Source: a virus
IMG/VR virus record: IMGVR_UViG_3300035701_000001
Direction: 5' to 3' (one strand)
Length of the DNA stretch: 64,000 bases
Each line of letters begins with the position of its first letter. Position 1 is the stretch's first letter. Below the pieces are notes generated by a model, which saw only the letters and a list, made by a program, of their open reading frames with translations, made no database searches and was not told where the DNA came from. Positions 40,745 through 44,630 of this stretch are shown here, one piece after another. The position numbers and the translations under genes were made by a program.

Positions 40745-40817
40745 CCCCGCGTAGCTCAGCGGTAGAGCAGCGGAATTTCAAGTCCAGCGGTCGCAGGTTC
40801 GAGCCCTGTCGCGGGGT
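40745..40817 (+). tRNA. atypical tRNA with an 8-nt anticodon loop (ATTTCAAG; UCA or UUC(A) reading)
   Basis: Acceptor CCCCGCG/CGCGGGG, D-arm GCTC/GAGC and T-arm GCAGG-TTCGAGC-CCTGT are canonical; the anticodon arm is irregular. Confidence 0.75.
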
Positions 40818-40979
40818 CTTTCCCTTGACGAGCCCATGGAATGGTCCTACGCTATGCCTATGACGACCTGGATCTTCGAGTTCACGTGAATGCGGGGCAT
40901 CTCCTCGATGCCGTGACCCTCCCGAATGGGTTGGATGAATCGGTTTCTTCCTTCCAACCCTTTTTCGAGAGAGAGTCCC

Positions 40980-43213: not shown

Positions 43214-43250
43214 AAAAAAACGGGGTCGACGCCGTGAAACGTCGACCCCG
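43214..43250 (-). terminator. intrinsic terminator for minus-strand transcripts
   Basis: 11-bp stem CGGGGTCGACG/CGTCGACCCCG followed by T7 on the minus strand. Confidence 0.85.
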
Positions 43251-43303
43251 CTGGGGCGAAACGGAAACCCCGTCCCGCCTCCACCACTCTCGCCTTGAGA
43301 GAT

Positions 43304-43918
43304 CTATAAATTTGCAATTGTTATTGGATCTATGATTTTCGCAGCAATAACTTTTCTCCGCACAACAGAAAAACCGTATTTTTTTGCTGTTAGTTCTTTT
43401 TCTTGATCCAACTTTTTCTGTGTTTCACAAAAATGATACGGGCCGTCAAATTCAACCAGGATTCTTACATCCAAGAGAGCCAAGTCGAAGACATATTCTT
43501 CAATTTTGTACTCAAGTTCAAATTTTCTATTGTTGTTAACAAGTACATCTCTTATGGCAGAGTATTTCCATTTTTCTCTTCTTTTCAATGTTTCTGACGC
43601 TGTAAGTAAATTTCCTTTTTGTAGAATTCCGCCAAGTCTTTGCGAGGATCTCCGTTCTTCAGACATGCTGGATGAACTAGCGCAAGAACGAGAACAATGT
43701 CTCTTGGCTTTGTTGTGTGTGGTCGTAATGAATGTTTTGCCACATCCTGGGCATACCATGATTATCTCTTTAGATTTTCTTGGTGCATTCATGGTCAATG
43801 CGGTACATGAAAGGCTGCAAAACATTTTTCTGCCAAGTCTTTTTGATCTGTTGAATTCGCTTGCAGATTTCAAGACTTTGGCCCCACAACCATCACACTG
43901 TATTTCAACTTTCTTCAA
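43304..43918 (-). CDS. Vsr/DUF559-type (PD-(D/E)XK) endonuclease with Zn-ribbon repeats; putative freestanding homing endonuclease
   Basis: CDGCG..FCS..C and CPGCG..HCSRSC repeats; FDLAL..ILVEFDGPYH; TTG start with GGAGG RBS; AT-rich relative to flanks. Confidence 0.8.
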   Translation of the reverse strand: MKKVEIQCDGCGAKVLKSASEFNRSKRLGRKMFCSLSCTALTMNAPRKSKEIIMVCPGCGKTFITTTHNKAKRHCSRSCASSSSMSEERRSSQRLGGILQKGNLLTASETLKRREKWKYSAIRDVLVNNNRKFELEYKIEEYVFDLALLDVRILVEFDGPYHFCETQKKLDQEKELTAKKYGFSVVRRKVIAAKIIDPITIANL

Positions 43919-43935
43919 GTCAACCTCCACCGGAC

Positions 43936-43964
43936 ATTGTAGCAAAGTCCGATGGAGGTGACAA
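43936..43964 (-). promoter_or_regulatory. endonuclease promoter embedded in an RBS-sequestering hairpin
   Basis: TTGTCA(43964-59)-17nt-TACAAT(43941-36); stem ACCTCCATCGGAC/GTCCGGTGGAGGT covers GGAGG. Confidence 0.75.
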
Positions 43965-43968
43965 GAGA

Positions 43969-44630
43969 TGGAGATGGCGGGAGTCGACACATTGTTGTCG
44001 CCGTGGCTTTTTATCCTCGGCTTCTGCCCGTTTTCTTCCGGACAGGTCGGCGTACGTTTTCCCCCTCGGGTTTCCTCGGTCGGGGGCTGGAGACTCTTGG
44101 GGGGATTCTTGCTGGCATCTGTGCTCACCCCCTACGCTCTACGAGGACCTCGTGCTCGCGAAGCCCTCTCGGCGTTCCCATCTCAGGGTTCACCGATATT
44201 CCCCAGTTCTCTTCCCTGAATTACGCCAGGGAACGGGCCTTCTCTCGACCCGCGTCCAGAACCAATCGACCTCAACGTCTACGCGCGTAGCGGGTTTGGC
44301 ATTCGGTTCCCCTTGGAGTTCCCACGTCCATCGAAGTTCCTACACGGCTGATCTCCCCCGAAGGAGAGAGAATCCGGTCGTCGTCCCCCGGAAACCCCGC
44401 CATTCCATCTCAGACACGCCCAGCCAGGTGGTGATGGAAGGTGAGTCTCGGACCTTCCTGGCCGGACGGGAGCGTCCCTTTCGGGACTAGGCAGCCAGAC
44501 GGGCCGCCTCTCCGAAGTGCTTGCTGTTGTTGGCAATTACTTTTGGTTTGCCCAGTGCTTTACGAGGTTCTGGACGACCTCGGCGCGCGGTCTTGGCCTT
44601 CCTCGGCCCTGTCGAAACCGGTGCATCCCC
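43969..44630 (-). ncRNA. ssrA: tmRNA (intron-containing); tag peptide ANNSKHFGEAARLAA at 44534-44487
   Basis: 5' GGGGATGCACCGGTTTCGAC; acceptor GGGGATG/CATCTCC with G3-U70 and A73; spliced T-arm GCGGG-TTCGACT-CCCGC; tag ends in LAA-stop. Confidence 0.95.
43988..44247 (-). mobile_element. group I intron (260 nt, IA-like, no internal ORF) in the tmRNA T-loop
   Basis: P1 GCGGGU/GCCCGU with U-G at the splice site; P2 TCCCTG/CAGGGA; P3 CTGGGG/CTCCAG; P4 CGGTG/CGCCG; P7 GCGTA/TACGC; P8; P9; terminal G. Confidence 0.9.

Follow-up and report, generated by a model that had tools for sequence, protein, structure and literature searches.

Can a tmRNA gene that is interrupted by 260 nt inside its T-loop still be a gene, and what is the sequence that interrupts it? 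The question is raised by the minus strand of a 64,000-nt stretch of viral DNA (IMGVR_UViG_3300035701_000001, hereafter the window), where a first-pass annotation, made without database searches, had described a tmRNA gene split by a group I intron. The coordinates and strings that it gave hold on reading the sequence, and the gene spans 44630 to 43969 (minus strand). Exon 1 (44248–44630), which is defined by a match to the Rfam tmRNA model RF00023 together with ARAGORN on the spliced sequence, begins with GGGGATGCACCGGTTTCGAC at 44630 and ends with ...GGACGCGGGT at 44248. It carries the 5' acceptor strand, the tag region, the pseudoknot region, the 5' strand of the T-stem, and the first T of the T-loop. 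Exon 2 (43969–43987, minus strand), which reads TCGACTCCCGCCATCTCCA and has a single copy within the window, carries the remainder of the T-loop, the 3' strands of the T-stem and acceptor, and the discriminator A.

RF00023 matches exon 1 at 44250–44622 (minus strand) with 74.6 bits against a gathering score of 47 (E 3.7e-27). The match runs as far as GGACGCG, and neither the 3' strand of the T-stem nor that of the acceptor is included. ARAGORN found 41 tRNA genes and no tmRNA in the raw window. After deletion of the 260 nt from 44247 to 43988, it returned a tmRNA of 402 nt in which both tRNA-like domains, the resume consensus, and the tag ANNSKHFGEAARLAA* are recognised. Splicing gives the T-arm GCGGG/TTCGACT/CCCGC and a 7-bp acceptor, GGGGATG/CATCTCC, with G3–U70, confirming that removal of this segment restores both elements. 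The tRNA-Ala-like domain is complete only when 44247–43988 is removed. The junction GGGT|intron|TCGACT is unique, as a shift of one base leaves no 7-nt T-loop. The prediction that standard annotators would miss this gene is correct outright for tools of the ARAGORN type, but those based on Infernal and Rfam would report its 5' 373 nt.

The tag reading frame (44487–44534, minus strand; positions 97–144 of the spliced tmRNA according to ARAGORN) runs from a GCC resume codon to a TAG stop. It is open and terminates in the usual LAA, so that the alanine resume codon, the stop, and the hydrophobic C-terminus are all present. In the RF00023 alignment PK1 is good, while the PK2–PK4 region has low posterior probability and many nonstandard pairs, and the score of 74.6 bits compares with 98–205 bits for Anaerolineae tmRNAs and 79–119 bits for other phage tmRNAs. 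After the discriminator A comes TCT rather than an encoded CCA (43966–43969, minus strand), and maturation must therefore need a CCA-adding enzyme. No smpB was found in the 64-kb window (tblastn, best E 0.12), as the annotation had said. The exact 5'-end pattern of the tmRNA has 0 matches among the viral contigs searched, and the 350-aa protein encoded upstream of the tmRNA has no relatives in viral contigs or in a set of 5.8 billion proteins. A close relative of the tmRNA, with or without the intron, was not found in the searched viral and metagenome contigs, and hence there is no intron-less, empty-site allele of this gene to set beside it. Acquisition of the tmRNA from Anaerolineae was considered and is unsupported, since the identity is about 50%, no better than that to other phage tmRNAs. 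Elsewhere in the window, apart from the main tRNA blocks, lies a 74-nt tRNA gene (40745–40818, plus strand; Rfam tRNA 44.4 bits) with anticodon TCA, which ARAGORN calls tRNA-SeC and which may encode a TGA-reading suppressor tRNA.

The insert (43988–44247, minus strand) has the parts of a compact, ORF-less, IA-like group I intron, placed after the first T of the T-loop. P1 (44233–44253), read from the sequence, pairs the exon GCGGGU (44253–44248) with intron nt 10–15 (44238–44233) across a 9-nt loop, and the exon U at the splice site (44248) lies opposite G at intron nt 10. The P2 hairpin (44213–44232, nt 16–35) has seven standard pairs in the family alignment described below and is present in the minimum-energy fold. 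The 5' strand of P3 (nt 42–48), P4 with a minimal P5 (nt 52–79), and P6 (nt 80–105) follow at 44143–44206, with every window pair standard. The 5' strand of P7, GCGUA (44133–44137), has its partner UACGC at 44054–44050, and between P7 and the 3' strand of P3 stands a P7.1 hairpin (44100–44132, nt 116–148). Such a P7.1 is a mark of IA-type architecture (classification summarised in PMC3984707). The 3' strand of P3 (nt 155–161), P8 (nt 162–187), J8/7, and the 3' strand of P7 (nt 194–198) occupy 44050–44093, as aligned to the family model. The last part of the intron (43988–44045; all of these coordinates are on the minus strand) consists of the P9 hairpins (nt 203–224 and 227–248), where the family motif GAGGAUAAAAAGCC is found, and ends with the terminal G at 43988. 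Thus, every element that had been named for the insert, from P1 with its U–G through P2, P3, P4, the variant P7, P8, and P9 to the terminal G, is present, and P7.1 is an addition to that list. A P10 is not convincing; by inspection it is at best UCG/CGA, 3 bp, on the far side of the P1 loop. The fold of the insert has a z-score of −3.15, and its GC content, 0.60, is like that of its surroundings. The RNA model covers all 260 nt, and an endonuclease ORF is absent.

Is the resemblance to a group I intron one of descent? A search for the conserved core motif led to 21 viral contigs, and from these a covariance model, R1, was built from six introns that split phage protein genes, with the window left out. 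R1 has one match only in the window, at 43988–44237 (minus strand), with 112.9 bits (E 6.7e-34), over model positions 1–311 and ending at the terminal G. The same model matches the AR9 gyrA gene twice, in a CDS annotated by its depositors as a join of three pieces, and, in a Streptococcus thermophilus phage, the gap that separates a pair of CDSs annotated as 'terminase large subunit'. It also matches an intron in a viral contig (L006) whose ORF starts with a GIY-YIG-type motif, and the endonuclease-bearing DNA polymerase intron of Alicyclobacillus phage MMB025. By blastn, intron nt 105–243 matched two Bacillota phages, and in one of them, MMB025, the match has a 'DNA polymerase' CDS fragment on each side and directly follows an 'endonuclease' CDS, the classic layout of a mobile intron.

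The changes among these relatives are compensatory. A three-way alignment shows P7 as GCGTA/TACGC or GCATA/TATGC and P7.1 as GGGGG/CCCCC or GGCGG/CCGCC, with further compensatory changes in P8. Across the relatives P7.1 is GGGGG/CCCCC in the window and GGCGG/CCGCC or GGUGG/CCACC elsewhere, with changes on both sides at 5/5 pairs. When 15 sequences were aligned to R1, 93.8% of the cells were paired, compared with 38–44% when the partners were slid; the slid control is the relevant one because the alignment was fitted to R1, which favours pairing. Changes on both sides occur in 65 of the 82 pairs, covariation is seen for P3, P4, and P6 over the 15 family members, and none of 500 shuffles reaches the observed values. 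The window itself forms 50 of its 53 alignable R1 pairs. P7 was left out of R1 because it crosses P3 in the group I pseudoknot, but it is paired in 14/14 sequences, as GCGUA/UACGC, GCAUA/UAUGC, or the canonical GACUA/UAGUC, and this series ties the variant P7 of the window to the usual one.

The Rfam group I model RF00028 (Intron_gpI) gave no match to the insert at E ≤ 10 (901 nt searched). An Infernal search with tmRNA and group I intron models had been proposed as a check on the annotation, with rejection of the core by such models counting against an intron. The tmRNA model matches exon 1 and R1 matches the insert, and although the silence of RF00028 is formally such a rejection, we judge it uninformative, because RF00028 also misses the MMB025 and CBP1 introns, the annotated AR9 introns, and a classic Clostridia tmRNA intron. 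The S. thermophilus phage member (L068) does pass, with 51 bits against a threshold of 50, and this links the R1 family to the curated group I model. Homology and covariation together support the assignment of the insert as a group I intron.

Its lineage appears to be that of Bacillota phages. The introns of AR9/PBS1 gyrA, the S. thermophilus phage terminase, the MMB025 DNA polymerase, and the tail gene region of Caldibacillus phage CBP1 have the same core as the window intron and share with it common sequence blocks, P7.1, and the P9 motif, at 60–76% identity. However, they lie in protein-coding genes, some with endonuclease ORFs, whereas the window intron is ORF-less and lies in an RNA gene; its GC content of 0.60 compares with 0.33–0.56 for theirs. 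The nearest relative (L076), which comes from a metagenome contig and seems to interrupt a coding sequence there, shows 75.9% identity across 232 nt and has both the minimal P5 and the ...AACAATGTG end of the window intron. Since L076 has the same minimal P5, the small size of the intron is a trait of the lineage.

Searches for the family in other tmRNA genes were negative. No other R1-family intron in the collection (21 loci in viral contigs, 14 in metagenome contigs, and those of the phage records examined) lies in a tmRNA gene. The 14 metagenome members came from a broader pattern of the intron core, and 0/14 are flanked by tmRNA exons; the window-specific core had 0 matches in metagenome contigs. 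The pattern GAGGATAAAAAGCC...TCGANTCC had 10 matches in 185,579 species genomes, all by chance in coding DNA, so this exact motif revealed no cellular subsite-2 tmRNA (subsites are defined below) with an intron of the window's family. When the intron was compared by BLAST with 401 Anaerolineae genomes, only short matches at chance level appeared. The sole other tmRNA intron found by R1 is a weak subsite-7 Clostridia match with 27.5 bits, compared with 112.9 for the window. One viral contig (IMGVR_UViG_3300020112_001004; L007:1113–2822) has four introns of this family within 1.7 kb (R1 95–226 bits), which is unusually dense.

The locus is thus very probably a phage-encoded tmRNA gene that is split after T-loop nucleotide 1 by a compact, ORF-less group I intron of an IA-like, Bacillota-phage lineage. 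The primary transcript would fold the exon GCGGGU and the intron guide GCCCGU as P1 onto the P3–P9 core. P7 would bind free guanosine, and two transesterifications would then release the 260-nt intron, ending in G, and join GGGU to UCGACU. This ligation would recreate the T-arm and the G3–U70 acceptor stem. End processing, CCA addition, and alanine charging would fall to the host, which would also have to provide SmpB. We infer catalysis by the intron, and function of the tmRNA in infection, from the intact anatomy.

An improbable alternative is that a genuine intron has lost its catalytic activity, or that the tmRNA is a passively carried, decaying pseudogene. The low Rfam score, the divergent pseudoknot region, the unencoded CCA, the lack of smpB in the window, and the reduction of P5 and P9 relative to other family members would all be expected of such a relic. 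However, every core helix is intact, with 50/53 pairs formed, and the changes are compensatory rather than disruptive. The U–G pair and the terminal G have been kept, and the tag frame stays open up to its final LAA. Furthermore, the minimal P5 is found also in L076, and other phage tmRNAs score similarly (79–119 bits). It is more improbable still that host RNases excise the insert as an intervening sequence without ligation, to give a two-piece tmRNA. Permuted tmRNAs do exist, and one lies beside a homologue of the endonuclease described below, but cleavage within this T-loop would produce a 3' fragment of 19 nt with no more than 5 + 7 bp to hold it, and a spacer would have no need of a full group I core with homology to spliced introns. 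Least credible of all is an assembly chimera or the scar of a mobile element or attachment site, for which nothing specific speaks beyond the frequent use of tmRNA 3' ends as integration sites, and against which stand the insertion of only 260 nt, the lack of a duplicated tmRNA 3' end in the window (including a displaced 'ghost' 3' end downstream of the endonuclease gene), the GC content matching the surroundings, and boundaries that follow group I rules exactly.

How does the split tmRNA gene compare with those already known? Intron-form tmRNA genes, whose T-psi-C loop holds a group I intron, were first described in Clostridium botulinum and are catalogued in the 2025 tmRNA database, where they make up 1,703 of 421,434 tmRNA genes (PMC11915505). 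The description of T-loop introns as known but rare is therefore accurate, yet the gene form is well catalogued. By subsite, 1,658 genomes have the intron at 7, 22 at 2, 14 at 8, and 9 at 3; the carriers at subsite, or "position", 2 are 21 Chloroflexota, mostly Anaerolineae, and 1 Myxococcota (PMC11915505). RefSeq viruses were scanned in that work, and no viral intron form is reported there. The catalogued introns resemble that of the window in the T-loop site, the −1 U:G in P1, the terminal G, and the P7.1 region. In this numbering the window intron, between T-loop nucleotides 1 and 2, is at subsite 2.

The numbering was checked by an RF00023 scan of 151 Anaerolineae genomes, which found three low-scoring tmRNA genes missed by ARAGORN (L044, L045, and L046, in genomes G010, G122, and G080). 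Their junction, GGGT|...G|TCGATT, is the same as in the window, and they give normal tmRNAs after splicing. Their introns, however, are about 660 nt long with a P7 ending in AUAGUC, in contrast to the 260 nt and GCGUA/UACGC of the window. R1 gave no match to them at E ≤ 1, placing them in a different intron lineage, and the tmRNA bodies are about 50% identical to that of the window, no closer than other phage tmRNAs. These comparisons point to an independent invasion of subsite 2 in the window rather than to common descent with the Anaerolineae introns. The L044 intron (537–1196) has an antisense 118-aa ORF with its own ribosome-binding site; this ORF matches LAGLIDADG weakly (Pfam E 0.0017, short of the curated threshold). 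The L045 and L046 introns have an antisense start codon and ribosome-binding site at the same place.

Only 50 nt past the tmRNA gene begins a free-standing gene (43304–43918, minus strand; TTG start at 43918, alternative GTG at 43930) for a 204-aa protein with two Cys4 zinc fingers and a DUF559/Vsr-like nuclease domain. It matches Pfam PF04480 (DUF559) with E 6.6e-8 and has eight invariant cysteines, and 19 homologues keep the nuclease motif's acidic, His, and Lys positions, which are of catalytic type. The predicted structure has a pLDDT of 90, and its best PDB match by Foldseek is the catalytic domain of I-Bth0305I, followed by Vsr, with probability 1.00 but weak E-values (0.005–0.03, best 4.8e-3). 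A sequence search against the PDB gave nothing meaningful, and no relatives of the protein were found in viral contigs. Between the two genes, at 43923–43964 (minus strand), is a promoter-like sequence, TTGTCA-17-TACAAT (TG-extended; 10/12 in a promoter scan), overlapped by a 13-bp hairpin whose stem (43959–43947/43935–43923), read from the sequence, pairs the GGAGG ribosome-binding site of the endonuclease gene. Read-through from the tmRNA gene would mask this GGAGG, while transcripts from the internal promoter would not. An intrinsic terminator-like hairpin with a 15-bp stem and a T-run (43219–43252, minus strand) closes the tmRNA–endonuclease unit.

What is this endonuclease doing beside a tmRNA gene? 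We looked up ten distinct genomic contexts among about 50 metagenomic homologues. In nine of the ten, the homologue lies 30–95 nt downstream of a tmRNA gene, and the gap usually holds the homologue's own sigma-70-like promoter; L054, L057, and L062 have promoter/hairpin arrangements similar to that of the window. The nine contexts represent seven distinct tmRNA genes (L054, L055/56, L057/58, L059, L061, L062/63, and L064–66), six with Rfam matches of 79–119 bits and one, L057/58, with only its 3' end on the contig and read by eye. In the tenth context (L060), a circularly permuted tmRNA gene (2564–2889; RF04321, 68.9 bits) lies at the 3' end of the homologue gene (2001–2636), and because it starts at the end of the nuclease gene, the nuclease again adjoins the acceptor/T-arm piece. 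None of these eight tmRNA genes has an intron. Three of the seven have noncanonical T-loops in place of TTCGANT (L054:2900–2934, L057:130–170, and L059:1935–1969), namely GGCAGTA in two and the 8-nt ATGCAAAA in one, and are missed by ARAGORN. The tRNA genes flanking the unit in L054, L059, L061, and L062 indicate that the tmRNA–endonuclease module sits within phage tRNA clusters. In L054 only 5 nt separate a tRNA gene (2432–2514) from the phage tmRNA gene downstream of it. These contexts fit a family of free-standing homing endonucleases whose special target is the end of tmRNA genes that bears the T-arm.

The gene form itself is already catalogued; the novelty of this locus lies in its being carried by a virus, in a phage-type, IA-like intron occupying subsite 2, and in the Vsr/EDxHD-like endonuclease gene 50 nt downstream. 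On the reading of a phage tmRNA gene split by a group I intron, the catalogued intron form would be extended from bacteria to a phage-like virus, and the rare subsite 2 would have been invaded at least two times by unrelated group I introns. This would lend support to a proposal already in the literature, namely that the −1 U offered by the T-loop makes it a pre-adapted site for introns. Counts of phage tmRNA genes are underestimates, because ARAGORN misses such genes and Intron_gpI misses this intron lineage. The intron and the tmRNA-associated nuclease family together offer a testable system for the assembly of selfish elements around a conserved RNA gene.

Separate introns and endonucleases are known to cooperate in collaborative homing, as in cyanophage S-PM2 (psbA intron and F-CphI) and T4 (mobE and the I-TevIII intron) (PMC3984707, PMC2790892, PMC6083498). 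It is possible, at somewhat less than an even chance, that the window intron and the neighbouring endonuclease are such a pair, with tmRNA genes as their special target. Nucleases of this family would recognise the conserved T-arm end of tmRNA genes in rival phages or in the host, and the intron, by splitting GGGTTCGA, would make the carrier's own tmRNA gene uncuttable. Altered T-loops such as GGCAGUA would be other ways to protect carrier tmRNA genes, and in mixed infections the nuclease, intron, and tmRNA would be co-inherited. If true, an RNA gene would be the object of an arms race, and a phage-type intron would have invaded subsite 2 independently. In the window, as in the collaborative pairs, an ORF-less intron lies near a separate endonuclease gene, here 50 nt away and with its own promoter-like site, and the nuclease family keeps to the same target gene. 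Unlike in the S-PM2 and T4 pairs, however, the nuclease of the window is Vsr/EDxHD-like, and its target is an RNA gene.
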